64,000 nt of DNA from Alloascoidea hylecoeti. Its lineage: Eukaryota. The position numbers and the translations under genes are program-made. The notes under the pieces are model-generated. The model ran no database searches, was not told the origin of the DNA, and saw nothing but the letters and a program-made list of their open reading frames with translations. Positions 9,754-62,246 of the stretch are shown here, in pieces; positions within the stretch are counted from its first letter, which is position 1, and each line of letters starts with the position of its first letter. The stretch is taken from NCBI GenBank assembly GCA_001600815.1, contig BCKZ01000001.1, positions 850,613 through 914,612 on the forward strand, written 5' to 3'.

Positions 9754-11937
9754 TCACCATATTTGTGTCTCCTCAAATAAATCAACCCTTCCTTTGCAGT
9801 CAGATAAATATTCGGCTGTGTAATCTCTAATTGAATCAGAGAATACATCAGGACCACATGTTACAATACCAACAGATCCTGCACTGATCTTAAATTCCTC
9901 TCTAATAATTGTCTCAATATCTGGTCTTCCCTTTTTCAGCGTTATGAAGGGGAATCTTTCTCCAACAGTCCTCCAGAGATCTGTGGATCCATCTGCTGAA
10001 TCTGAATCTGAACCATCTTTATCGGAACCCTTTACTACTACGGCCTTTTTGTCATTATCGTTCTTTTCATCAATTGAGTCATCATTAAAAGAAATATGGC
10101 CAAGGTGATCTTCATCTCCTTTAGTGATATATATATTTGTTTCGATCTTATTGTTATTCAATTTTTCTAGGTCTTTATAGATCCATTCAAATGATGCAAA
10201 ATATCGAATAACCCAAGTAAATACAACTCGCTGGTTTCCAACTTGCCTTCTTCCTAAATTCTCAGCATTGCAAATTCCAGTTGGAATACCATGTCCTGCA
10301 CAAAATATTAAAGCGGTGTCGTATTTATCAAGTGGTGCTCTTGAACCATAAGGCCCTTCTATTAGTGTGTGAATTGTAGCAGAGTGATTTGGTTGTTTAG
10401 ACAAAAATTTACCAACCTTTGCAGTTAATCCATCTTTCATCTTAAACACAATAACAATATCTCTGTCATCTTTATCATATGCTGACAGAATCGTAAATGG
10501 ATGAGATTGCCAAAAACAGTCCCATCGCATAACATAAAGGTACACAAATGACCCGGGAACTGGTCTCCATGTAGCTGGTCTTTTAACCATCAGCCTAATA
10601 GTTTGTTCCTTCTCATAAAGTTGGTATGTCCCTTTGGTAGAAGCACCAAACCATAATACTCTTAAAATCCTGACAAAATGATCAAAACACCAGATTGCAA
10701 TAGATGCATATAGATATTCCATCCAACCAATATCACGACAGTGATACCAACAAGCAAACATAAATAAGGCAGCTAAAATAACATGAATTACTTTAAATAC
10801 CTCATAGCACTTAGCACGGAAAATATAAAGAGCTTGGAACATCAATAATCCAGCAAGAACCATGGCAACTATACCATATCTGAAATACTCTCTTTGAGCA
10901 GCTCTGGCATATGAATGACTTTCAAGAGTCATCATTGTGTAACAGATAGAATGAATGAAAGCTTCAAGAGCCATACCACGACCTATCCATTTGTGGAATA
11001 CGATAAACGATTCATATTTAAATCCAGTGAGCCACAGCATGAAATTGTTTCGTCCTGCAAAGAGGAATAGAGCCGGTAAATGCAAAAAGCAAATAACCCC
11101 ACTCCTATCAGCCAAATATTTTTCTGCTTGCCGTCTTGTAGTTGTGTAGAAATAATTTGGCAAGAAAATATCGTAGCTACTGCCAGTTAATGCGATAAAC
11201 ATGATCAAATAACCGATCAAAACTATGGTGTGCCCTCTGATTGGCACTAACATTAAATACTTCAAAGGGCCAATATGTCTCCTTCTTCCTGTAGCAGGAA
11301 GAGTTATATGTTTTCTGAAAAAGTTGAGATATTTCCCTTGACACTTCATTACAACACTAGGAACTGCTTTTCTAAAGAAATTTATAATTGATGCAATAAC
11401 AATAACCAAACACCAATAACTCATTATCCCTCCACCATAAAAGTCATTCAGGTCAACTTGATGATAAAAGGTTTTATAAGAAATAGCAATAAGCGCTTCT
11501 GTTTCATTAGTAACTAAAACAGGTGAATAATGCGCAACAGTTGAATTGAAGGTTGAATTGGAAGCGTCAATAAGATAGTTTGTTGCATTTTTGTAAGATG
11601 AACTCAGGTCATCGAGGGTAAGATTGATGCTATAGAGTGGACAATTTTCTAAGGCTAATTCATAAGCAATAGATATATCGGTTGTCTTTTTAGCATATTT
11701 ATTAGCACAAGTAACATATGTACCAAGTGCTGGATCTGAAGAGCAAATGCAAGCCCAAGAAGTAGTATTAACATCACAATCAAATGTAATGTCAGTGGTA
11801 GCAGCAGAACAAGCTAAACCAAGAATGTCACCATCATTATAGTTATATGTACTTGTTACTGGTTCTGTGAATAGTAACAATGTCACTGAAACCAAGGTAA
11901 CAAAGCAATGCTTCATAAGATATTCATATAGCTTCAT
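9754..11937 (-). CDS. Ferric/cupric reductase transmembrane component (FRE family), copy A
   Basis: 727 aa. Signal peptide, Cys-rich N-terminus, heme-ligand His (FHKWIGR, H..), FAD motif QSHPFT, NADPH motifs IEGPYG and CGP, C-terminal EETQIW. Confidence 0.95.
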   Translation of the reverse strand: MKLYEYLMKHCFVTLVSVTLLLFTEPVTSTYNYNDGDILGLACSAATTDITFDCDVNTTSWACICSSDPALGTYVTCANKYAKKTTDISIAYELALENCPLYSINLTLDDLSSSYKNATNYLIDASNSTFNSTVAHYSPVLVTNETEALIAISYKTFYHQVDLNDFYGGGIMSYWCLVIVIASIINFFRKAVPSVVMKCQGKYLNFFRKHITLPATGRRRHIGPLKYLMLVPIRGHTIVLIGYLIMFIALTGSSYDIFLPNYFYTTTRRQAEKYLADRSGVICFLHLPALFLFAGRNNFMLWLTGFKYESFIVFHKWIGRGMALEAFIHSICYTMMTLESHSYARAAQREYFRYGIVAMVLAGLLMFQALYIFRAKCYEVFKVIHVILAALFMFACWYHCRDIGWMEYLYASIAIWCFDHFVRILRVLWFGASTKGTYQLYEKEQTIRLMVKRPATWRPVPGSFVYLYVMRWDCFWQSHPFTILSAYDKDDRDIVIVFKMKDGLTAKVGKFLSKQPNHSATIHTLIEGPYGSRAPLDKYDTALIFCAGHGIPTGICNAENLGRRQVGNQRVVFTWVIRYFASFEWIYKDLEKLNNNKIETNIYITKGDEDHLGHISFNDDSIDEKNDNDKKAVVVKGSDKDGSDSDSADGSTDLWRTVGERFPFITLKKGRPDIETIIREEFKISAGSVGIVTCGPDVFSDSIRDYTAEYLSDCKGRVDLFEETQIW

Positions 11938-14900
11938 ATCTATTTAAAATGGAGTTAATTTTAAATTGAATGAGATTGAAATGGAAATTTTTCATATTCA
12001 ACAGTAGATATATTTGTCATTTATATATTAGAAAGCTTTCAATATCCGTTCGGGAGATATTGCGTAAGCATTAAATTCCGGTTCATCTTTGAATTAAAAT
12101 CAATTGCAAAGATGTGAGTATGATAATCATATGGTATGTTTCACTTAATTATATTTTTATTCTTCTGGCAAGTTACATGATTGCAATACTAATATAATGT
12201 TTGATTAGAATGTAGCGAGATGACTGATGGAATATTCATAACAATATTTTTTAAAAAATTTCATAATTGCAAGATGGTTGCATGTAAGGTTTCAGATAAT
12301 TATTTATAAAGCTTTATACCAATATGGCAACCTGAATTGAATTTTTGCATTTGGAGTCCAAATGTATATACTATATACGTACGGCATTAATATCATTAGT
12401 ATGAATTAAAATATGAGCTGATGAAGAACAATCATGCTGGAAGCTTAAGTATACCCAATATTACCCGTGATAAAAACAGAAGGCCATGGACTTTAATCTA
12501 GATTTAAGATTATCTTTCCACAATTTTATATTTTCTATGCATACTCATATTTAGTACAAATGGAAATTTGCTATATTACAACCTATAATATTAACTATAG
12601 CTATAGAGAGGTTGAGTTAAGTACTAATCCTAGTCGATTCCTTTATATGATCCGTTAATGTGGTTGTTAACGTTGTAATTGGAGAGATGGAAATAATAGT
12701 ACTTAAGCTCGAATCCTGATCCTGTAATTAAATACTTATGTACTTATATATGGATTTATCATTTCTAAGTTCTAATTAACATAAATATATCAATTGCAAA
12801 AACATATTCATATTTTATAATAAAACTGTCACAAGTGTTACCGATATAGCTACTGCAGCTGTATAAAGCTGTTGTATACACTTACATATTTGTATTACCA
12901 TAGCTATGATTAGTTACTAGTATACAATAAAGATCATCAGCATTTTTACCAAAATAGTAATTATCAAGTTAACTAGATCTTTAGCTACATCACAGTTGAG
13001 AAATAGAATTATTTTATTTACTCCGATGGTATCTGTTCCACAATTGCAATAATTATATAAAGCTTTATAAAGGTATGTAAGTATTATCATACTCTCTAAA
13101 TCTCACATATTGCAGATTTTAATGCGTAATTATAAGTTATGTCAAAAAAAAAGAAAAATAATCAAAAAAGTCAAGAGCTTAATTATAATTTAGTTGGGGG
13201 GAAAATATAGCAAGAATCTGTAAGATAATATAATCAATCGAATTCTATGTAGTAGGAAATAAAACCTCACCATTGCAAACACACGCATGATGTTTAATTT
13301 CCCCGTATCTTCCTTGCAACTAATCAACTCTATTGTATTTAATAGCATTATAGCAGTTCTAAATATCTGCGTTGCGAAATCCCGTATGTAGTGCCAGGTA
13401 CCGATCGACGGCGGTTATCAAACAACAAATGTAAATATTTTTAGTCGTAAGACTAATATTGATAAACGTAAATATATATATATTCACAAAGCTTGACGTA
13501 CTGCCTGAAAATATCCCACGATCACGACTGTCAAATTCATATATTCATTCATAAATTTGATATAGTTAATTGTTTATGCATTGCCAACTTGCCAAGCACC
13601 TTTAAATTATAAATACTTTTGCCAAGAGATCGGGCTCATATAATAATTCGTAGAAATAAAACACCCTTGCATAAGTAAAGTTGCCTTGATACTACAGAGA
13701 TATAAATCATACATTATTAGACATATATTTATGGTGTGATTTAAGAGTTAGGGTATTTTCGGATGCTAGTCTCCAATTAAATGTCAGACTTTTGATTTAC
13801 CAACCAATCATTCAATTTACTAATACTAATTACAAGTTTAATCATAAGGATATATGTGATTGTTAAAACACACCCCTAATTATCCCTCTCTAAACTCCCC
13901 TAGTTTAAGCATATTCATAATCTTATCTCAAATTCACCGCTCAAACCCAACATTGATTTTTAAAATCATTTGGAAATATAATTTTGAGTTTTTCTTGGAT
14001 CTCAGCACAATTCATACAAACCTCCCATGTATTAACTGCAGTTGGTACGTGCTATTAATTATAAATATGGTCGAATTTAATCTAGATGATCTTTGAAAAA
14101 ATTATTATAGTTATGCATAGATTGATCGGATAGATCAGATGGATTAGATTTCAATCTTGATCGATCAGATAATTAATTTCAATGCAGTTGCCTATATTTT
14201 AATATAAAATTCTTTACTTGACAACGTTAACAAAATTAAGAATAATTAAATAAGATTGGTTAAATGAGGGAACTTTTCAGCCATGATATTATGGGCACAT
14301 GACTACCTACAGCTATATTCATATATTTTTATATACAGTGTCTTATATGTATGGATTTACTGTAAAAGAAAGAACCATTTTTATTAAGATTAAGAATAAC
14401 ATTAGCAAATATAATTATTAGTTACAAAATGTATTGGACACTTAGACTTGAATAATATTAAATAATTCCACTTACATTGCAATTGAGGAGCTTAAAGCTG
14501 ATGGTAGTTGTATATTAATGTATAATGCTGAACATCTCATTATAAGCCGCCGCAATCAATTAAGTTATATATTATATGGAATCCCTAAATTTTTCACCTT
14601 TTGGTTACTCACTGAAAAATTTCAGTGAGTTACAAAGTTCTAATTACCATTTTCAAACTATTTCTGGTTCTTATAATATATTCTAAATTTTAAGGGCTCG
14701 GATTCACTACAAACTTCAAAGAAGGATCACTTATGGAATGTCCATGATCTATTGCAATGAATTTAATTAGATAACCAAAAAATCATAAGTTTATTGTTAT
14801 CCTGTATATGTCAATTAAATATAAAACCAGATACATATGGCTCTGGCTTACATTTAAATATTTAGTGAACACTGAACACCGCGACCGGTCCAATATGCAT

Positions 14901-16096: not shown

Positions 16097-16187
16097 TGTT
16101 GGATATATTACACTCTTAGAACAGTTCACTAAAGGGTCGATTGGCTTTTTGGCGCAACTGGGAGAACAGGCACTTTGAACTTTAACA
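16097..16187 (+). repeat. 5' LTR (91 bp, TGTT...AACA)
   Basis: Differs from 19084-19176 only by a 2-bp TA indel and one G/A change. Directly followed by the PBS. Confidence 0.92.
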
Positions 16188-16199
16188 TGGTAGCGGCGC
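16188..16199 (+). other. Primer-binding site, probably tRNA-iMet
   Basis: TGGTAGCGGCGC immediately after the LTR. The first 8 nt match the Ty1 tRNA-iMet PBS (TGGTAGCGCC). Confidence 0.75.
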
Positions 16200-18318
16200 T
16201 GGTATTGCAAGCACATCTAGTGTAGGTGCGGCAATTTCAACAGAAACGATCCGAGCTTTGCCCAAATTAGTGATGGGAAAGAACAACGCATCCTTTGAAC
16301 GATGGGATTATGCTGTAACGTCGACCTTACGGAGATATGGTCTGGCTAAATATATCTCGGTGACAGAAGGAGCAGCTTTTTATGAGGATAATGGAAAGCT
16401 AAAGAAAACACTCGGAAAGAGAAGTTCTAGAGCATGACAATGTGATGACTATTTTGCTGGGATCAACAGCGGTCGATCTACAGGTCTACATTGATGTTAG
16501 AAAAGGTGCTTTAACAAGTTATGTGAACTTGAAGAAGGTATTTCACTACCAAAAGTCGGTACCTATTTTGTTAAGAGAGATCACCAGTTTAAGATTTGAT
16601 GGTGATGAGACTGTTATGGAATTTGTGACTAAATTTCAACAATATTTGCGAGATCTTGAGAGTGGCGGATTAGAAATGAGCGATGAGATTGCTGATTCAC
16701 TCTTATTAAGTACATTATCAGGTCCTTATGAAAGAATCACCGATGATCTGATTAACAATAATAATGGTAAGGATTATTCAGATATCCTAAATAGAATGTT
16801 AAATATTGAAGAGTCTATAAAAGATAAAGATACAGTTGTTATTGGAAAGGTCAATACACAACGTAATGAAAATTCAAATCGTGGTGGTTATAGAAATAAT
16901 AATAATCGTGGTGGTTATAAAAATAATAATTACAGGGGTAATTATAACCAAAGAAGAGAACCACGAAAATGCTATAAATGCAATTCTTTAGACCATATTT
17001 ATCGGAATTGCCCTATTAAGAAGGCACAGGATGAAGCTAATAGAAAATCTAAAGAGAACACCAAGAGTGAAACAGATTATAAAGATACTGAAAGTATTTT
17101 TATGGCTACAACTGGAAATAATTCAAAGGATGATATGATTTTGGATTCAGGAGCCGGTTTTGGAATAATGAATAATAACATATATATTCATGAATTTACT
17201 GAAGATTTAGCAGATTTACCAATAATCACATCCATTGCTGGTGAAGTATTGAAGATTCATGGCCAAGGTAAGATGAAATTGTTATTAGGAGAACAATACG
17301 TCTTTATAAGATGTGTTTTGGTTAAGAATAGCCCCAACGTCATCCCTACTAGAGAACTTCATAAGTTAGGTTTCTATATTAGGGAAAATAAGAAACAAGA
17401 TTGGCTTGTTTATGAAGATGAAGTGAAGCCCGTCGCTCGCATTTATCGACGTGATGGTAATCAGTGTATTCATGATTCTAGAGTCATAAAGAATTTAAAT
17501 ATTGAAAAGAAAATCAATTATGTTCATTCTAAATATGCACATATAGGAAAATCACTATTACTCCATAAGAATTCAATGTTGTCAGAGAAGGAAAAAGAAG
17601 AATTAAGAAAAGAAGAGGATTGTTTAAGTTGTGCCGTTGGTAAAACACAGAGACAATCAATGGTATCTAAAAATGATAGATATTTAGATGATTNGGAAAT
17701 TTACGCTGACATAGCTGGTNCTTTTAATGTATCAAAAGATGGTGCTAGATACTTACTTCTTTTTAAAGATAGNAAAACTAAATGTGTTTTTCCATTCACA
17801 ATTAGTCACAAGAAAAATATTGAAAAATATTTTATAATTCTATATGAATTCTTACTGAACCAAACAGGAAAGCGCATTAAGAAATTAATAAGTGATAATG
17901 GTAGAGAATTTTCAAATATGGCAGTTACCGAAGCGCTCCAATTGAGAGGTGTCCACCAAATATTTGGATCTGTTGAATCTCCTCAAAGTCAGGGTTCTGT
18001 TGAGAAGGAGAATCATGTGGTTTTGAATTTGGTCAGGTCCATTTNACACGATTCTAACCTCGGTGATAGATTTTGGGATCTAGCTGCAAAATATGCAATT
18101 GTGACTCGCAATATCATTTTGGGTAAATTTAATCAATTGGGAATTAATTGTGTTAGCAACATCAAACATATCCATAAATTTGGTTCACGGGTAGTATTTC
18201 GGAGACCTCAACAAGAAGTGAAATCAAAATTACATATGAGAGGTGAATTGGGAACTTATGTTGGATTAAAACATTGGGTGGCATTGATAATGGATGACAA
18301 TGGCAGGTTGTTCCACAC
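16189..18318 (+). CDS. Copia Gag-Pol (Gag N-terminus in a different frame, +1 shift near 16403-16436; interrupted by the N-gap)
   Basis: Gag N-terminal motif LPKL.MGKNNASFERW..TLRRYGLAKYI, zinc knuckle CYKCNSLDHIYRNC, protease ILDSGA, HHCC (HSKYAH..CLSC), integrase ADIAG..SDNGREFS..SQGSVEKEN. Confidence 0.88.
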
Positions 18319-18548
18319 NNNNNNNNNNNNNNNNNNNNNNNNNNNNNNNNNNNNNNNNNNNNNNNNNNNNNNNNNNNNNNNNNNNNNNNNNNNNNNNNNN
18401 NNNNNNNNNNNNNNNNNNNNNNNNNNNNNNNNNNNNNNNNNNNNNNNNNNNNNNNNNNNNNNNNNNNNNNNNNNNNNNNNNNNNNNNNNNNNNNNNNNNN
18501 NNNNNNNNNNNNNNNNNNNNNNNNNNNNNNNNNNNNNNNNNNNNNNNN

Positions 18549-19053
18549 CTCATCGCTCATTTCTAATCCGCCACTCTCAAGATCTCGCAAATATTGTTGA
18601 AATTTAGTCACAAATTCCATAACAGTCTCATCACCATCAAATCTTAAACTGGTGATCTCTCTTAACAAAATAGGTACCGACTTTTGGTAGTGAAATACCT
18701 TCTTCAAGTTCACATAACTTGTTAAAGCACCTTTTCTAACATCAATGTAGACCTGTAGATCGACCGCTGTTGATCCCAGCAAAATAGTCATCACATTGTC
18801 ATGCTCTAGAACTTCTCTTTCCGAGTGTTTTCTTTAGCTTTCCATTATCCTCATAAAAAGCTGCTCCTTCTGTCACCGAGATATATTTAGCCAGACCATA
18901 TCTCCGTAAGGTCGACGTTACAGCATAATCCCATCGTTCAAAGGATGCGTTGTTCTTTCCCATCACTAATTTGGGCAAAGCTCGGATCGTTTCTGTTGAA
19001 ATTGCCGCACCTACACTAGATGTGCTTGCAATACCAGCGCCGCTACCATGTTA
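18549..19053 (-). repeat. Inverted copy of the element's own U5 tip, PBS and gag 5' part (equals 16183-16687)
   Basis: Reverse complement of 16183-16687, including the same frameshift. Its left end runs into the N-gap. Confidence 0.9.
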
Positions 19054-19069
19054 GTAAAGTGACCTGCCT

Positions 19070-19083
19070 AAGGTTGGGGGGTG
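19070..19083 (+). other. Polypurine tract
   Basis: AAGGTTGGGGGGTG immediately 5' of the 3' LTR. Confidence 0.7.
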
Positions 19084-19176
19084 TGTTGGATATATATTAC
19101 ACTCTTAGAACAGTTCACTAAAGAGTCGATTGGCTTTTTGGCGCAACTGGGAGAACAGGCACTTTGAACTTTAACA
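19084..19176 (+). repeat. 3' LTR (93 bp)
   Basis: Near-identical to the 5' LTR and followed by the TSD ATATA. Confidence 0.92.
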
Positions 19177-20943
19177 ATATATATTTAGACAGGTTAGGAA
19201 ATATGATTTCTATTTTGTTTGGTAATATTTCCCTACAAATTAATCCTTTAATTAATATTTTATGTTTATGAGTTATACCGTAAACGCCATAGTACTCGGA
19301 TACCACAACATTGTTCTGTTGTATTGGATTTGGAAAATAAATGAAGTTTTCGCGTATGACATTATGACGTTATAGAAGGTTCTCGCTGCTTTTGTTTACC
19401 ATTTAGTTTTATATATATAGCTTTATATATATAGCTTTATATAATTTTTAATATTGATTTTATAGAAAACCTATAAAGAAATAATATTAATGTCTACAGA
19501 GCAAATTAGATTAAGGTATTGCCTCTTATATTCCAAAGTTGAGAGTGAGCTTGTTTTTATGATCGTTCTAATTCATTAAAGCGTTTGTAAATGCCGTTTC
19601 AACTTTATCGTATTTTAGGGTGGTCATCCAGAATTTATAGATCTGCTCAATTATTATAATACAATATGATAATACAATAACCTCCTTAAAAAACATTTAC
19701 ACTATTATTTGATTATAGAGGCATTATATGATATCAATTTGGCAGCTCTCGAGTGATAATGGCATAATAAAAATTTGCGTTTTTGAGTAAATCTACTGAG
19801 AAAAATGAGTTAAATTTTGGAAACGTTCTCACACAGAAAATTTACAAGGAGAAAAATACTAAACCAAGATTATTAGCGTAGTGAGGTTAGCTAGCTTTTA
19901 GTTATATATATAGTATTTATAATAATACAAGCCTTCTTGCCACGCAGAGCTAAACAGGTGTTTTGATTTAAAGATACGGGAAATAACGATTCCCGAAATT
20001 ATACGCTAGATTCAATCGAAACTAAATTATTGATATATTAATTACTTCAGTTTTTCACAGATACAAATATACAATATAACAACCGAAAAAGAATTAAAAT
20101 TTTAATAATACACATGAATATATTTTTTGTTGGTTTTGTAATTCATGGTTGCAACTAGTATCCGAATATGCTAACTCATCCAAAGACTATATTGTACATA
20201 ATATATAATGAATTCATATTTTGGTGATGTTGGTCGTTCTTTTAGTAAGCACTTATTCTTGGGTGGTCAGAAACTCTGGACTGGTGAATAGCAATGCAAA
20301 CACACTATCCTCTTTACTATCCTCAATGTGTTATAAAGCTTTCTTCTCTAGGCGAACCTGTTTTTTCTGAGATACCTTCTTTAGTGTTTCCCTTACAATC
20401 TGCCAACCTTTTTTCCTGTTTATTGGCTCAGTGGTTCAGTGAGGAAAGGTGCCTTCTATAGAGAATTTTTCTGCCCTTCAATAAATTTCTCTTGTAGGAA
20501 AACAGATGAGATCCTGGCTCTTGTACAGTATTCCTCACTACAATAAGTGAGGCCTGTGCCCGGTTCTTTCTTCATAACATGCTAATGACTTTTATCTCAT
20601 GAGCATTCAGTTCATCACTCGAAGACTCTACATTCCCTGATTCTAGATTGTTTTGTACTGATTCTGCATCGACTGAAAAGGTATCAGAGTAGCACAGTAT
20701 GAATTAAAGGGATCCAAATCATTCAATAGCAATTTCAGCAATGATGATTTTTGTTGTCATGCAGTGCGGACGATTACTTTGATGAATTTTCAGGCAAAGT
20801 TCCACTGCGGGTGAGTGACACATTCTAACGATGTGACAATCGCGTCGCAGATCCCGTTCAATTGCAAAGATTTTAATCCATTACTCAGCATCCATCTGTT
20901 AGCTCTTTCGCTAGGAGAAGGGTAGAATTCAGTTTCATCAATC

Positions 20944-23112: not shown

Positions 23113-23271
23113 TTATATCTGTATAATACAATGCCTTATAGTTACCTGCATATGTTAATTTATATATAAAGGGTCCACACTTCCAATTGACAGCTTCGGT
23201 TTAAAATTTAAGGAATGCTTTCAATTCCACATTCCTTAAATTGTGTATTAAAAAAAACAAAATAAAAGGAA

Positions 23272-25479
23272 ATGTCAATAATATTTCATCGTCCATGGCC
23301 AAATCGTAACATGCGCTATGACATTCTTATTCTACTTTCACTAGCATTATCATTCACAACCTCTGTTTCAGCAAAGGGGTATAAATATGATGAAAGTCAA
23401 ATTGTTGGTCTTGGTTGTTACCGTGCTACTGCAGATATAACGTTTGACTGTGAGGCCGGCACAAGCTATTTATCTTGTGTTTGTTACTCTATCCCTGCAC
23501 TTGGAACCTTCTCAAATTGTGTCAATGAATATGCAGAATCCTCGACTAATATTCCAAAAGCCTATGAAATGGTTTCAAGAAAGTGTACTACTCTTAATAC
23601 AACATTTTCAACTAGTGATTACAACCAAGCTTACGAGAACTCTACTAAATATCTGGTTAATTATTTGGATTCAAACTTCAATGCATCTGCTACAAATTAT
23701 TCTCCAGTAAAGTTTGATTCAACGACATACAATATATATAAAAGGACGTTTCGGGTTATGTATGGTCAATATGACCTTTCAAACTATTATGGAGGTGCAA
23801 TAATGTCGTATTGGTGTCTAGTTATTGTCATTGCAACTATTATGAATTTTTTCAGGAAACTTTTCCCAAACCTTATAAGGAAGTTCCATGGAAAATTCAT
23901 AAATACCTACCGAAAATGGGTAACCATTTCAGAGGAGAGAACAATACGATTGTGGCCTCTTCAAAAGTCTATTAATATTTCCGTTAGAGGAGATCAATTC
24001 TTAATTTTGGTAGGTTATTTAATTATGCTTATTACTCTTACATGCGTTAGTTACGAGGTTTTTGATGGAAACACTCGTTATATCGGTACCACCCAGCAAG
24101 TCTCAAAGATTCTGTCAGATAGATCAGGAATAATCTGCTTTGTTCATCTTCCAGCATTATTTCTTTTTTCGGGAAGGAACAATATTTTGCTATGGCTAAC
24201 TGGTTGGAAGTATGAAACATTTATGGTATACCACAGATGGATAGGAAGAGGAATGGGTGCAGAAGCTTTCATACACTCTGTTGCCTACACTGTTATGATG
24301 GATGTAAGGAATACATATGCGGCAGAGACAAAAATGAATTATCTAAGATATGGTATTGCTGCTATGGTCGTTACTGGAATATTGATGTTTCAATCTCTTC
24401 GCTTTTTTCGTCAAACGGGGTATGAAATTTTCAAAATTATACATGTAATAATGGTAATAATGTTTATTCTTACATGTTGGTATCATTGTGTTAAAGTTGG
24501 ATGGATGGAATATTTATATGCTTCTATAGCGTTTTGGGCATTTGATCATTTCGTGAGAATCATTAGATTGTTGTGGTTTGGTATATTCACAAAGGCAGAA
24601 TATAAATTATACGAGAAGGATGATACTTTCCAAATAAAGATGAAGAGACCGCCATCTTGGAATCCTTCCCCCGGATCTTTTGTGTATCTTTATATTTTAA
24701 GACCAAGTTGGTTTTATCAATCACATCCTTTTACTATTATCGCACCCTACAATTCTGATGAAAATAATAAGAGTATTACAATTGTCATCAAAATAAAGAA
24801 TGGCTTGACAAAAGAAGTAGCTAATTATCTTTTAAAACAACCAAATGGAAGTTCAACAATGTATTCTCTAATAGAAGGGCCTTATGGTTCAAGAGCACCA
24901 CTTGACAGGTATGACACTGCTTTATTAATGTGTGCAGGGCATGGTATTCCAACTGGAATTTGCAATGCTGAGAATTTAGGAAGAAGGCAAGTTGGAAACC
25001 AGCGAGTTGTATTTACTTGGGTTATTCGATATTTTGCATCATTTGAATGGATCTATAAAGACCTAGAAAAATTGAATAACAATAAGATCGAAACAAATAT
25101 ATATATCACTAAAGGAGATGAAGATCACCTTGGCCATGTATCTTTCAATGATGACTCAATTGATGAAAAGAACGATAATGACAAAAAGGCCGCAGTAGTA
25201 AAGGGTTCCGATAAAGATGGTTCAGATTCAGATTCAGTAGACGGATCCACAGATTTCTGGAGGACTGTTGGAGAAAGATTCCCCTTCATAACGCTGAAAA
25301 GGGGAAGACCAGATGTTGAGACAATTATTAGAGAGGAATTTAAGATCAGTGCAGGATCTGTTGGTATTTTAACATGTGGTCCTGATTTCTTCACTAATCC
25401 AATCAGAGATTGTGTATCCAGACATTTATCTGAATGTAATGGAAGGGTTGATCTATTTGAAGAAACACAAACATGGTGA
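23272..25479 (+). CDS. Ferric/cupric reductase transmembrane component (FRE family), copy B
   Basis: 735 aa (start may be ATG 23311). Same motifs as copy A: YHRWIGR, QSHPFT, IEGPYG, CGP, EETQTW. Confidence 0.95.
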   Translation: MSIIFHRPWPNRNMRYDILILLSLALSFTTSVSAKGYKYDESQIVGLGCYRATADITFDCEAGTSYLSCVCYSIPALGTFSNCVNEYAESSTNIPKAYEMVSRKCTTLNTTFSTSDYNQAYENSTKYLVNYLDSNFNASATNYSPVKFDSTTYNIYKRTFRVMYGQYDLSNYYGGAIMSYWCLVIVIATIMNFFRKLFPNLIRKFHGKFINTYRKWVTISEERTIRLWPLQKSINISVRGDQFLILVGYLIMLITLTCVSYEVFDGNTRYIGTTQQVSKILSDRSGIICFVHLPALFLFSGRNNILLWLTGWKYETFMVYHRWIGRGMGAEAFIHSVAYTVMMDVRNTYAAETKMNYLRYGIAAMVVTGILMFQSLRFFRQTGYEIFKIIHVIMVIMFILTCWYHCVKVGWMEYLYASIAFWAFDHFVRIIRLLWFGIFTKAEYKLYEKDDTFQIKMKRPPSWNPSPGSFVYLYILRPSWFYQSHPFTIIAPYNSDENNKSITIVIKIKNGLTKEVANYLLKQPNGSSTMYSLIEGPYGSRAPLDRYDTALLMCAGHGIPTGICNAENLGRRQVGNQRVVFTWVIRYFASFEWIYKDLEKLNNNKIETNIYITKGDEDHLGHVSFNDDSIDEKNDNDKKAAVVKGSDKDGSDSDSVDGSTDFWRTVGERFPFITLKRGRPDVETIIREEFKISAGSVGILTCGPDFFTNPIRDCVSRHLSECNGRVDLFEETQTW

Positions 25480-27524
25480 TCTTTTTGTAGTTGTTTAGTA
25501 TAATATCTTATATAATTAAGTTAAAAAACTAGAATATAGAGCCAAACAACATAAATTTGATAGTATGTAGATAATTTATTGGTAAAATGAGAAAAAAGTA
25601 TAAGTATAAAATATAGACCTATGTATAGTAGGTTATATTTCGTGATCTTGATGAGGAACAAATTCATCAAATATCGTTGTATCAGTTTTGTTCATATAGT
25701 ACTTCCTCTCTTTTCTGATACATCAGTCCAGACTCCTAATACCAAAAGATTTTGACCAGTTAAAACTAACTAGAAGCACTGGATATATCATCATTATACA
25801 CTTCTCACATAATAATGGCATAATGATTATTAAAGATGAAGAACCAAATCAAATCCAGTTCTCTTCTTAGTTTTGGTTCTTCTATTATAGCAGGCTTGAA
25901 ATAGAAGGAACATTTAAACTTGTATACCGGTATACTTATAAGTTTCCGAATCTAATTAACATCGACATTTGCATCAATATTTCCATATTTATTACTGCAA
26001 TTTCAGGGTCAGATACTAGATAGTTATAAATCTAATAAGTAACTATTTTGTTTTGTTTACAATCGAGGACTAATTATGGTCTTAGGTGAAGAAATGTCAA
26101 ATGGTCTTATATTCGGACAATTGGGCTAATCTGCAAAAATATCACCGATTTACGGTAAACATAATTGGAACTACTACATATTTAAAGTAGTGCATTATTA
26201 TATGGTGGGCGGGCCAATTGCAAAATGAACAACTTTTAGGAAAATCAAAAAATTTTAAACATCTCACGGAAAATGGGGTCACATCATTAAGATATTAAAG
26301 ACGATAAGGCAGATAAATGGCAAATTTAAATCTTCTTGTTTTAAATTAATCTCTGTAATTATTTGACCCTATTTTTTAAGTACATAGATAGGCCTCCAGA
26401 TTTCGCATACAAATAGTTGGGAAATAAGGTCACATTTGCTGATAATCACCTGCACAACGTCCTAAACAGGAATAAAACCTACTTGATCGATCTAGAGTGT
26501 CTGCATATCCATACTGAATATTGCCTAATATCGTATTATGTGTATGCATATGCATAATTGGATGCCTTTTTTTGAAATATTGAGTGGGCTCCCCTTTATA
26601 TTTATAATTGTATTGATTTTGTTTCGTCTAAACTAGTGACTATTTTGCAATTGTGTTATATGATATTATGAGTTTATAGTTAGACCTACCGTCATTAATA
26701 TTATCTGCTGTTCCATGAATATGATTTTATATCCAAATAAAATCTGTTAACTCATTTTCTATGTGAAAATTCACCTAATGCATCTATAGATCGATATGCT
26801 TGATATATTTCCAATTAACTTAACTGGAAACCATTGTAATTATTCGAAATTTTCAAATACAAATCTCTAACTATCTAAAAAATTAGATAGATTTATTGAG
26901 TTATACAAGACGTCTCATATACAAGTTACATGTACAAGGCCTTACATACTGTATAGAGAGGTATTGGTATTTGAGTGTATATTATTATGAAGTGACCTCC
27001 ATCGATACTGTTGTTAAATGACTGGTTAGAGGGGTAATGGATATAGGTATATTACGGACATTCATTCTCCATGGCTAATCGGAAAATCAAAACATTCAAA
27101 ATGCCTTACAATTGCAAGTTCACACAAAAGCATAAACGGGTCTAAAATGACTACATTAATACTTATTACTCCCAATTTTCGAATTCATATATGGCCATGG
27201 CTTCATACATGCTTGTCTTTTGTGCATACCTGTTTAATATGAATATAATTAGTAATTACATTACCATCTTGTTGTGAATTCATAATGGAGCTCAAATTTC
27301 CGTTGTCACTAGTTTATTTTTCTTAATAATTATCATTTGAGTCCCTCTTTTTTTTAACTTTTCATATATTTTCCAATTAAATTATACAGAAACTGTGTAA
27401 ATTCTGAGGAAATCTCTACTATATATAGTGAAATAAAAACCTCTTTTTCTATTCTTCTTATTTTTGTGTATTCTTGACACTCTTCTTTCTTCTCTTCTTA
27501 TGTACCTAGACTACCTTAAAGGTA

Positions 27525-28780
27525 TTTTTTTTTTAATTAGATTTGTTTTTACTTTTTCAAGTTTTTAGATATTAGAATCCCCCAATCAATCTAATTTAAT
27601 ATTTGTGGTGGTGTCCCTGCAAATCTAATATTTTTTCTTAGCTCTAGTGCCTTTTGATAAAAGCCCCATTTTTTTCTATATTGTTTTCTTTTGTATTTAT
27701 GATCAATAACTTGATCCCTATTCTTTCTCTTCCTAACATCATCTTCTTTAGTATTCTTATTGTTGAGTAATCTTCAAATAGATGTAATATGTCGTCTTTA
27801 CCTTGTTGACATGAACTACAAATATCAGATTTTTGCCACCATTGTTTTTTATTATGATGTAACATATCCCAAGCCGAGCAAATGTATCCATTGTGTCTCC
27901 CCAGGATGTTCCTTATATGTTTCTTTGATAAATCCCCACCATTTCTTCTAATTTTCATCTTTTAGTTCTGGAATTAACTACATCCATTTGTTTGGTTTTA
28001 ATATAATATTGATTTTATTATACCACTTCTGGCTTATTGATTTAATCGGGTATTTGGATATGTTTTCTTCTTCTATGTCTTTTATTCTTTTTTTGATATC
28101 TTCTCTTGCTGGGGTTTCCACTAGTTTTTGTAACGCTTCATTTATTAATTTTGGTACCATTTTAGCAGTTAGTATATTTATTTTTTTGTGTTTATTATGA
28201 TTCTCCACGCTTTCAAGTATGTAATCAATCTGCCTTTAAACTTATTGTTTGGGTTTACTGGTATAATTCAATAAATCGCCAATAAAAATATTACACCAGT
28301 GAAAATTCAGCTCTGTATTATTATCCGTTAAGTTCCCTTGATTTCTACTTACTGCTTCCTTTAATGTTGTTGCTATATTTTCCAAGAATTCTCTCATTAA
28401 CTTTGCATAGTCTTCCTCACCTTGCAATGCACTCAACATCCAGCTGGCTTGGCGACCTAATAATTGCTTTTTTAGGTCGCTTAAACCAAAACCACCAGCT
28501 GAAATGGGAGTTTTCAAATTTTCAAGAGCAATGGTTGTACCGCTTTTTTGGCTTCATTTTCTATCTGCTCTATTGTTTGTTGTGGAATTGGCCAAAATTC
28601 GTTAAGAAACTGTATTTTGAAGTATACATATGTATTTATATGTATTTATATGTTTACACCTCTATGACCGTAATATCTTTAACTAATTGTTGATTTATCA
28701 TTTTAATTATTTTATTCTCGAGCTCAGACCATTGAACTCCTAAAATGGGAACTCCAAGATAGGTCATATTTTTCAGATAT
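27525..28780 (-). mobile_element. 5'-truncated, frameshifted non-LTR (L1-clade-like) retrotransposon ORF2 3' part
   Basis: In order: TYLGVP (end of RT), KTPISAGGFGLSDL..ASW, CSSC..DILHLFED (CCHC-type finger), LELRKNIRF. An A-tract lies at 27525-27534. Boundaries are approximate. Confidence 0.85.
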
Positions 28781-28869
28781 AATTTCACGCATTTTTTATA
28801 TATTTTCCAGGCTAGTAGAGAGTCACTTGTCTTATTCAGATAACTGAGATTTTTAACGATAAAGTTCAA

Positions 28870-28940
28870 GCGTTAGTGGTTTAGCGGTAAAATTCTTCGT
28901 TGCCATCGAAGAGCCCCCGGTTCGACTCCGGGCTGACGCA
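28870..28940 (+). tRNA. tRNA-Gly(GCC)
   Basis: Acceptor stem GCGTTAG/CTGACGC, anticodon arm CTTCG-TTGCCAT-CGAAG, T-loop GGTTCGACTCC, followed by a TTTTT Pol III terminator. Confidence 0.97.
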
Positions 28941-28980
28941 TATTTTTGCTTTTTCGAAAATCGAAAAACAAATTAATTCA

Positions 28981-29169
28981 GAAACAGGGTGCCAATAATA
29001 TAAAATGTAACATTACTCAAAAAAGAGTAAACCTATAACATTAGTAATAGGTATTTTTGCCTAGCAATAGCTTTTTATTTTCACAATTTTTGGTTGTTAT
29101 AAATATAGTATTTATAGAAAAAGCAGTTTAATATAGAGCCTTAATGGCCACTTGAAAAAAAAAAAAAAA
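28981..29169 (+). repeat. Poly(A)-terminated repeat copy 1 (putative retroelement 3' end)
   Basis: Aligns with 29390-29565 (CATTACTCAAAAAAGAG..AACCTATAACATT..TTTTGCCT..TTTTATTTTCACAATTTTT..TTTAATATAGA..CACTTG) and ends in A15. Confidence 0.75.
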
Positions 29170-29389
29170 GAGTGAAGTGAAATCTTTTCTTGATTTTAAC
29201 CATAAGGAAAGAAAATATCACAGAAGATATTATCAACAGGAGAATAGTTTATCAGTATCACAATGGTATAAAATGATTGAAAGGGACTCCACAAAGCTTT
29301 GTTCTGAATCACTTAGGTGCTACGGACAAAAAAAGAAAGAGAGGAAAGATGTATACATATGACATCCTATTGATTGAGTAAAAGGTTGA

Positions 29390-29565
29390 GAATAGAGGCA
29401 GGCAATAATACTATAGAAAGTAACAACATTACTCAAAAAAGAGCGAACCTATAACATTTGTAATAGGAATTTTTGCCTTGTAGCTCTTTTATTTTCACAA
29501 TTTTTTTGGTTGTTATGAAGGTAGTTAGAGATATAGTAGTTTAATATAGACACTTGAAAAAAAAA
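29390..29565 (+). repeat. Poly(A)-terminated repeat copy 2
   Basis: Diverged direct copy of 28981-29169 ending CACTTG-A9, preceded by A-rich ORF-like sequence at 29177-29362. Confidence 0.75.
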
Positions 29566-30823
29566 GTAGTTGTATATCAGACTTGGTTTTACCGCACAGA
29601 TATTTAAACCTTTGTTATATTAAATTTCAATAATTCTTTTTATCCTCTTATAGATTAGCAAGTATAATTTATAATAAAATGATTAGGCAAAAGAAAAAAA
29701 AGAAAAAAAGAAGCTCCATTAATCTGTTGGGCCCTTTGTGCGGTTAAATCTCTTCCATCAATCTCAAATCGAAGCTGAAATTGTCAGTTCTGTTCTCATT
29801 TGTGCATTATATTTTCTCCAAATTCCATATCATGATGATTCATTTATCATTTTAGGAGGGTTTTAGTGGATGTACTTTATATAGTTATAGCATAAAGTTG
29901 AGTCCTACGCCGTTGAACAAATGCAGGGTTCAATATGAGATTGATATTATGTTATGTATACAACGTTAACAGATTCAAAAATATTAATCACTAAGCTGCG
30001 CAGGGCAAGATAAGTGCGGAATAGAAAAAAAGCATTAAACGTTCTAAGGTTTATGCATTCAAGTTCAATTCAAAAGACAACTTTAAGAGCATAGAAAAAA
30101 GGACAAGAAAAATTATATCCCTCTATTGACTATTTAAAAAATTGATGATGTAAAAGATCTGACTCCAATCAAATCCAAACTGATTTACCTGCTACACGGC
30201 GGCGTGTTCTAATATTACCTTCTATCGGGCAATTACGACTGGGGTGTGTAGCGATGTGCAGATTTAGAAAAAATCATCTTCTCTATTATCGCGATCAGCA
30301 GCTCATCAATCGCAAGATCATTCAACACAAGTACGGATGGCTGACCAGTGACTAACACTGAAAGCTTTTCAAATACACGTTCTGTCGGTAATGACAAACC
30401 CTTGGGAGATTACTGTTTGGCTGCTGCTCAATGCAAGAAGCATTTAGAATACTTCAAAGTTTGAATTCAAATTAGATGTATCGTGACTACACGTGTATGT
30501 TCGAATGTCTTAAGCACTCTCTAGATCTATAACCAATTGCGATTCTGAGAGGGACATTTCACATATTATTTATTTATTTATTAATTCTATATAAAACAAA
30601 ATTACTCCTTTTCTCCGCAGCCAATGTGAATCATTATGTGATCGGAATCAGATGAAGCATGAAAAAGTTGCTTTCAAATTTCTACTGCGTCTGCGGCCCG
30701 CGGTCATCATCACTGCAGGTGGCAATCATCCTTCGTGAAAATAAAGATAAAAAACATTTCAGCTAAAAATTAAAATTAAGAAAATTAACATCGATCGAGG
30801 AATTGTTACTACTAATACCACTT

Positions 30824-61352: not shown

Positions 61353-62246
61353 TTACGTTGCATGGTGACGATTCTTATTTTTTTGTTCCCTTCGTGTTGG
61401 AATCTTAATACCTTGTGATGCAAAACATTTGCTTAATTGTGTGCTATCAATAACACCTGGAAACTTTTTAGCACTAAACACTTCGAATGAATTTGAGAAG
61501 CAAGTACATATGACTGGTGCAGCACCTTTATCAAGTGGCTCACTACCTGATGGACTGCTTAGGTCAATAAAATTGCACTTCAAACGAAAAACACCTTCAG
61601 ATCTAATAGATAGGTCGTGAAGAATGAACCAAATCCCCAATGTTTGCTCAAGATCTTTTAATTTAAACGCAGTTGTTGTTAAAGAGCCAATAAGGTTTCG
61701 TGTTGGTGGGTGTTGATCCAAAGGTTGCATATAAGTGGTTTCTCTTGAAACATGATGTTGTTCGCCTTTTGAATTTGAAGAAATGGAACTTGAGGGTGTA
61801 TCAACATTTAGTTCATGATGAGTATTCAAGCTACTACAGCTAGTTGATGATGAATGTAGAGAAGATCCGTCTCTACTGCTGCTGCTGTTTCTGGAAGCGG
61901 AAGGAGATGCATTCCTATAACCCCCATTACCATAAGAATGATTTGCTTGTGCTAATGAAAAGTTTCTCTTCTTATCTTCGGACCAAAGTTCCACCAGTAC
62001 CACGAAGAATGAGCTATTTATGCTTTCAACATCAAATTCTTCTTCAGTTGCGGAGTCAAAGATACGAAGTCGAACACATGGAGGAGGGGAAATTTGACGG
62101 CGGTCCTTAAAAATTGAAGACATTCAGTTAATAAGATTGGTTGTCAATGAATAGTAGTAAAATTAAGATCATACTTTATCACCAAAGCCACACATGCGAG
62201 CTCTAATAGGATGCTGGACAAATTCAAGTTTGTAGATTTTACCCAT
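61353..62246 (-). CDS. Velvet-domain regulator, VelB-like (exons 62246-62175, 62105-61353)
   Basis: MGKIYKLEFVQHPIRARMCGFGDK|DRRQISPPPCVRL, Ser-rich insert, TRNLIGSL..WFILHDLSIRSEGVFRLK..FEVFSAKKFPGV..LSKCFASQGIKIPTR. Confidence 0.9.

Follow-up and report, generated by a model that had tools for sequence, protein, structure and literature searches.

The closest described systems to the one analysed here are those of the social amoebae. TRE5-A, TRE5-B and TRE5-C of Dictyostelium discoideum and NLTR-B of Polysphondylium pallidum are L1-type non-LTR elements that lie with the 5' end toward a tRNA gene and on its opposite strand, and TRE5 elements show in addition a fixed upstream distance, 5' truncation and insertion beside 5S genes (accessible portions of PMC3159450, PMC5391098 and PMC5911963). 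In the case of TRE5-A, the ORF1 protein binds TFIIIB subunits and insertion needs the B box (PMC5911963 and PMC5391098, in the sections available). The elements TRE3-A to TRE3-D of dictyostelids are found downstream of tRNA genes within a broad window. In the available text of PMC5006619 this kind of targeting is termed unique to dictyostelids, and in the available part of a 2018 review the non-LTR section of the table of Pol III-targeting elements holds dictyostelid elements alone (PMC5911963). Pol III targeting occurs in yeasts too, where the LTR elements Ty3, Ty1, Tca8/beta and Tyl3/Tyl6 use an integrase, in contrast to the families presented below (A, B, D and E), which end in poly(A), are 5'-truncated and lack LTRs. 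Zorro1-3 of Candida albicans and Ylli of Yarrowia lipolytica likewise belong to the L1 clade, occur in budding yeasts, end in poly(A) and show few duplications if any, but as far as the accessible excerpts go Zorro3 has a poly(A) target and no tRNA association (PMC1965478), Zorro1 and Zorro2 are subtelomeric (PMC7175516), and no tRNA targeting is described for Ylli (PMC5014426). No report of fungal LINEs targeted to tRNA genes was found in the literature searched, Repbase reports and most subscription papers lying outside its scope.

The DNA analysed here is a stretch of 64 kb from the budding yeast Alloascoidea hylecoeti (hereafter the window), and the feature under study in it is very probably a dead copy from an L1-clade family, called family A, whose members used target-primed reverse transcription to enter at about 60 bp upstream of Pol III genes and read away from them. 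The copy, delimited by alignment to other copies, is 5'-truncated and decayed, occupies positions 27348 to 28778 of the minus strand and contains the end of the reverse transcriptase, the C-terminal part of ORF2, a zinc-finger remnant, the 3' UTR and an A8 tail (27348-27355). Its ORF2 remnants are scattered across three frames with many stops, and the motifs YLGVP (28761-28747), GGFGL (28496-28482) and KKWWGF (27947-27930) and the CxxC...H zinc-finger remnant (27823-27767) can be read along the minus strand. Comparison of this piece with L1-like ORF2 proteins gave a best blastx E of 3e-11, and a Pfam search with two window pieces returned no relevant match. The target gene is a tRNA-Gly(GCC) at 28870-28940 on the plus strand, with a T5 terminator at 28943-28947, and is the sole tRNA call in the window. 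Three longer family A copies (L003, L004 and L024) cease to match the window copy at 28778, and the 5' junction therefore lies 91 bp upstream of the tRNA gene; an L1-like copy reading away from tRNA-Gly was what the earlier note had seen, and in this it was right. The 3' limit that it placed at 27525 has to be moved to 27348, where about 20 other copies align down to the A8 tail. Because contigs assembled from the sequencing runs of two further studies (X2 and X3, from studies other than that of X1) cross positions 28749-28897 with zero differences, the junction between family A and the tRNA gene is not an assembly artefact. A near-copy of the family A 3' end (16/17 nt, at 28793-28809 within a possible short tail at 28791-28809 of the minus strand, repeat D5) starts 60 bp upstream of tRNA-Gly, which is the usual family A gap. 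It may have come in later as a very small insertion, which would account for the longer gap of 91 bp, or may be due to chance.

On the other side of the tRNA gene, the DNA from 28988 to 29709 consists of three LINE tails on the plus strand: a 3' tail of family B ending in A15 (28988-29169), 47 bp downstream of tRNA-Gly and on its strand, a second and longer family B 3' fragment ending in A9 (29170-29565) and stacked behind the first, and a 3' tail of E2, a further downstream LINE family, with an A-rich run at its end (29574-29709). Elsewhere in the window, a short repeated piece at about 26223-26284 stands out in three runs by elevated depth and by loose ends. A Ty1/copia-type element at about 16098-19180, with gag, zinc knuckle and integrase recognised by Pfam and no tRNA nearby, has a short direct repeat, about 90 nt long, at either end, and its 5' part is duplicated internally and inverted, which is possibly a misassembly. 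Two divergent ferric-reductase (FRE-like) genes flank this element (9754-11943 on the minus strand and 23266-25479 on the plus strand), and a Velvet-factor gene lies at 61353-62123 on the minus strand. The Velvet-factor family is known mainly from filamentous fungi, and is here met in a budding yeast. The host is also placed among the budding yeasts by its Kae1 protein, whose best named relatives come from Pichia, Ogataea, Komagataella and similar genera at 70-73%.

Searching the genome with family A yielded 48 matches, the best 40 of 72 candidates having been scored; all genome searches scored the best 40 candidates each, and all copy counts given here are hence samples. The longest copy (L062, about 1.9 kb) extends into the reverse transcriptase, which matched Pfam RVT_1 with an E of 5e-10 and human L1 ORF2p with an E of 2e-13 as against 6e-5 for R2. 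As judged from its sequence, the reverse transcriptase of family A is nearest to L1, and the family also has the C-terminal zinc-finger remnant, the poly(A) tail, the variable 5' truncation and the lack of LTRs that mark the L1 clade. Among 53 tails examined the poly(A) ranged from A4 to A22 and copy lengths from 59 to 1098 nt, and the copies are decayed, with a median identity of 87% to the window copy. The genome matches, the longest of about 1.9 kb, included no intact family A copy, no ORF1 and no endonuclease, so that the protein responsible for targeting is not seen. Matches to RVT_1 on small contigs, many of them with TGA stops, were set aside as probable mitochondrial introns.

The placement of family A was examined by merging three sets of matches into 60 places and seeking tRNA genes within 1300 bp of the 5' end. 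A tRNA gene was found on the 5' side in 50 of the 60 places, and in all 50 the element lay upstream and on the opposite strand, with no instance of any other geometry; if the genome is taken to have 200-500 tRNA genes, about 1% of places would have one this near by chance. The earlier note had proposed a Pol III-targeted non-LTR family in a yeast and had named random placement or orientation of the other copies as the finding that would speak against it; its proposal is supported by these places. In the first 30 loci (two overlapping, and one being the window itself), a tRNA was called in 26 by ARAGORN at default settings and in 28 when introns were allowed. Relaxing the ARAGORN threshold on the tRNA-free loci gave only implausible calls, which were not used. 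Several genes carry odd ARAGORN labels, such as Stop(tta), Asn(att) or '???' (L016:1346-1432, L107:1186-1271, L117, L122, L132 and L133), and are probably intron-bearing tRNA genes with a miscalled anticodon. The gap between element and tRNA has a median of 62 bp, and among the 53 copies lying within 130 bp, which face tRNA genes of 28 anticodon labels (a few miscalled), 42 fall within 50-76 bp and 33 within 57-69 bp. Copy length (59-1098 nt) and gap are not linked (rho = -0.17; p = 0.28; n = 43). Another 21 copies lie farther out, and in 19 of these the gap contains further repeats, a frequent one being a TG...CA solo LTR that begins 10-15 bp from the tRNA; in six, subtraction of these repeats leaves 56-73 bp of unique DNA. 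Four of the ten places without a tRNA gene have a Pol III gene or a trace of one: a tRNA-like relic that keeps a B box and lies at about 60 bp, a weaker relic, the 3' half of a 5S gene that the copy adjoins, and a tRNA-Ile from which the copy is split by a long Ty3-like element. No Pol III gene was found near the remaining 6 of the 60 places. Solo LTRs of several families (TG...CA) also lie 10-15 bp upstream of many tRNA genes in the genome (for example L086, L094, L105 and L134), the position typical of Ty3, and some are stacked or interleaved with LINE tails.

Family A is not alone in keeping to one side of these genes. Family B, a second L1-like family, lies downstream of a tRNA gene and on its strand in 39 of 40 places, the window tRNA-Gly included, the tRNA having been sought within 3500 bp, since the search had used the 3' end region of the element; the gaps span 10-121 bp with a median of 47 bp (n = 44), as compared with about 100 bp for TRE3. 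The longest family B copies (L071, L073, L061 and L065) carry putative remnants of ORF1, an endonuclease-like region, the reverse transcriptase and a zinc finger, all of them broken, and in L071 and L073 a partial zinc knuckle stands in broken coding sequence ahead of the endonuclease-like region; Zorro ORF1 has a zinc knuckle also. A piece ahead of the reverse transcriptase (P0004) matched L1-like ORF2 proteins with an E of 1e-21 and no Pfam family, and a word-based homolog search with the C-terminal half of family B found nothing at an E of 0.001. Families A and B share no DNA match, and about 30-40% in short protein pieces. Masking both exposed two more families. Family E is coding, has a zinc finger and falls into three subtypes, of which E1 has a downstream, same-strand position in 24 of its 27 places. 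Family D measures about 330 nt, ends in poly(A), has a 3' end like that of family A with no coding trace seen, and lies upstream on the opposite strand in 19 of 22 places. When side and strand were predicted beforehand for 11 fresh places of families D and E, 9 showed a whole tRNA as predicted, 1 a half tRNA at the edge of the examined stretch and 1 none. The reading of the locus as TRE5-like in the earlier note is hence sound for the upstream geometry and too narrow for the system, in which downstream families of TRE3 kind take part and Pol III genes other than tRNA genes are targeted as well: families A and D work like TRE5, and B and E like TRE3.

The same association emerges when tRNA genes are taken as the starting point. 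An Rfam search, with 63 tRNA genes scored out of 1957 candidates, left 61 genes after two on small contigs (C119 and C132) were dropped as probably mitochondrial. Chosen blind to the elements, 46 of these 61 carry an element within 600 bp, 33 upstream, 29 downstream and 16 on both sides, the last figure comparing with 13% of tRNA genes in D. discoideum (PMC5006619, in the text available). By family, 31 genes have family A upstream on the opposite strand and 5 have family D, while 23 have family B downstream on the same strand and 12 have family E; in a separate run with A and B alone, 30 genes carried A, 24 carried B and 43 carried either. Families A and D never occur downstream of the 61 genes. 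Four matches run the wrong way, namely two family B copies situated between two tRNA genes and two unexplained family E matches that are downstream and on the opposite strand. Twenty random stretches of 9 kb contained neither tRNA genes nor family matches, and a third, unrelated LINE of the same genome (L063:3000-4900, with no tRNA within 8 kb) had no tRNA gene at 18 loci, which overlap and amount to about 13 distinct places, some of them matching just a short side piece of the query; a Fisher test against this LINE was for these reasons given no weight. In the reverse transcriptase tree a long branch separates it from A and B.

Other genes transcribed by Pol III are affected too. A family D copy lies 63 bp upstream of the U6 gene, a family A tail lies 46 bp upstream of one of the 2 SRP RNA genes, and family A pieces begin 50 bp upstream of one of the two full-score 5S genes, in each case on the opposite strand. 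Beside the other SRP RNA gene an E-type piece is found about 40 bp downstream, the strand rules being kept. The occurrence of families A and D upstream of U6, SRP RNA and 5S genes implicates the Pol III machinery and not tRNA sequence. The two SRP RNA gene copies (L214 and L215, C21) are 15 kb apart and in opposite orientation, and the 5S rRNA genes (L216-L219) are dispersed over different contigs with unrelated flanks and do not form one array. In one place 65 nt of U6 (97% identity) are joined to a family A tail (C7:1091416-1091682, equivalent to L122:1373-1639), and this chimera stands upstream of a tRNA gene with a solo LTR between them and a family D tail beyond; chimeras with small RNAs are a recognised mark of LINE activity (PMC4476161, in the portion available). 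A full-length U6-like copy (L194:1501-1601; C6:741749-741849), 93% identical to the U6 gene, follows a tRNA-Gly of the same strand at a distance of 107 bp and is possibly a retrocopy set there by a downstream family.

Examination of the junctions and stacks gave a less uniform picture. Of 33 family A junctions, 10 have duplications of 4-6 nt, as against 5.9% of shuffled pairs (p = 1e-5), and 20 have none; target-site duplications of at least 9 nt were found at none of 41 family A junctions, no better than in shuffled pairs. No empty allele appeared among the run junctions listed. Within stacks of family A the copy nearer the tRNA is the less decayed in 8 of 11 cases (p = 0.23), and in stacks of family B in 1 of 4. 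Distance and identity are correlated across family A (rho = -0.28; p = 0.013; n = 80), with identities biased by short matches. There is thus a weak trend toward an age gradient in family A stacks and none in those of family B.

What has been observed is where the copies lie and which way they read, that they are cut short at variable points of the 5' side, end in poly(A) and stack, and which kinds of gene they target; a mechanism can be proposed around these facts. A constant distance of the 5' junction combined with variable truncation is what target-primed reverse transcription would produce if the nick were set by the neighbouring gene. Genes for tRNA, 5S, U6 and SRP RNA have TFIIIB and TFIIIC in common. 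As these genes share little sequence apart from their common use of these factors, the landmark for insertion is probably a protein. Family A would thus insert by target-primed reverse transcription at about 60 bp measured from the Pol III gene, the non-coding poly(A) repeat D obeys the same upstream rule, and the L1-like families B and E insert 10-120 bp downstream on the same strand. By analogy with what has been proposed for TRE5-A, we lean toward a model in which TFIIIB/TFIIIC bound at the gene acts as tether for the family A protein-RNA particle, whose endonuclease nicks just past the footprint of the factors, and families B and E may use TFIIIC or the terminator side as docking point. 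The benefit to the elements would be a safe landing place within a gene-dense genome.

The explanation that competes best, to which we give a minor though real chance, is that targeting is passive, accessible chromatin, the edge of a nucleosome or recurrent breaks next to Pol III genes admitting the elements with no contact between an element protein and TFIIIB or TFIIIC. It would account for the fact that several unrelated repeats share the same flanks, including the solo LTRs at 10-15 bp, and for the width of the downstream window (10-121 bp), and the targeting protein has in any case not been seen. Passive entry does not, however, lead one to expect a side and strand as strict per family as 50 to 0 for A and 39 to 0 for B, nor an upstream peak so narrow that 33 of 53 gaps fall within 57-69 bp, nor a third LINE of the same genome that has no tRNA nearby. 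A tether that measures the distance is the likelier reading for family A.

Descent is a separate matter, for the families could be true kin of TRE5 and TRE3, by shared ancestry or by horizontal transfer from dictyostelids, rather than convergent with them. The geometry is certainly close: the family A median of 62 bp, found across 50 of 60 places, lies inside the range of 37-90 bp upstream given for TRE5-A, and the family B and E1 positions (39 of 40 places at 10-121 bp, and 24 of 27) agree with the 14-228 bp downstream given for TRE3-A (PMC5006619, accessible portion), while a 5S gene, an SRP RNA gene and, through family D, U6 are additional targets as expected of TRE5. Moreover, an AU test did not reject A and B as one clade (p-AU = 0.139), nor did the tree show them as sister families. 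We nevertheless think kinship unlikely. L1 proteins bearing the names of five budding yeasts join family A in one supported clade (98/85), namely those of Candida subhashii, Candidozyma haemuli, C. pseudojiufengensis and C. jaroonii together with a cluster that has Scheffersomyces stipitis members, and no dictyostelid name occurs among the 30 of 148 relatives whose names were looked up, most of these being nameless. The trees were built from the nearest 141 and then from 35 relatives chosen by likeness to family A, and contain no labelled TRE, Zorro or Ylli. Because its reverse transcriptase neighbours are those of yeasts, membership of family A in TRE appears unlikely on sequence grounds, and the family differs from TRE5 in its host, in a peak at about 62 bp as opposed to 47 ± 3 bp, in duplications that are short or absent and in the lack of an intact copy among those found. 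It differs from Zorro3 in turn by its strong tRNA association and by 5' flanks that, inspected by eye, mostly do not end in poly(A). Convergence with the amoebal elements is our preferred reading.

Random insertion followed by selection sparing just the copies beside tRNA genes has very little to recommend it: all copies are decayed (median 87%), so that survivors alone are visible, and the genome is gene-dense, but selection alone gives neither a peak at 60 bp nor a single orientation nor opposite sides for different families, the random stretches are without any copy and the third LINE persists away from tRNA genes. Least probable of all is that the tRNA travels with the element, as a co-duplicated unit or, for families B and E on the strand of the tRNA, as a chimeric tRNA-LINE retrocopy, since although the U6-A chimera shows that the machinery can join small RNAs to LINE tails, the targets cover all those 28 anticodon labels, a short sequence is common to just 7 pairs among 52 family A gaps (several being pieces of one repeat), a T4+ terminator precedes the element in 44 of 44 family B gaps, usually by tens of bases, 64 of 72 targeted tRNA genes have a sister gene with which they agree to 97% or more, introns are kept in 12 of 79, and family A lies on the opposite strand.

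LINEs landing at set places beside Pol III genes are, in the literature searched, described from social amoebae alone, and what would be new here is their occurrence in a budding yeast, where they lie on both sides of the genes. On balance we favour the view that everything seen in dictyostelids arose a second time, independently, in a lineage of budding yeasts, several L1 families dividing the Pol III genes between them, one set docking about 60 bp upstream via TFIIIB at tRNA, 5S, U6 and SRP RNA genes and another docking downstream, while a non-coding poly(A) element accompanies them and U6 chimeras go to the same sites. For targeted gene insertion, LINEs that are built to land in safe places are of interest, within the limit that all copies seen are dead. 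The less-studied downstream mechanism of TRE3 type would become accessible in yeast, an organism whose TFIIIB and TFIIIC are well characterised, and the presence of LINE families on either side of these genes in one yeast would show that Pol III targeting can arise anew from fungal L1 stock.
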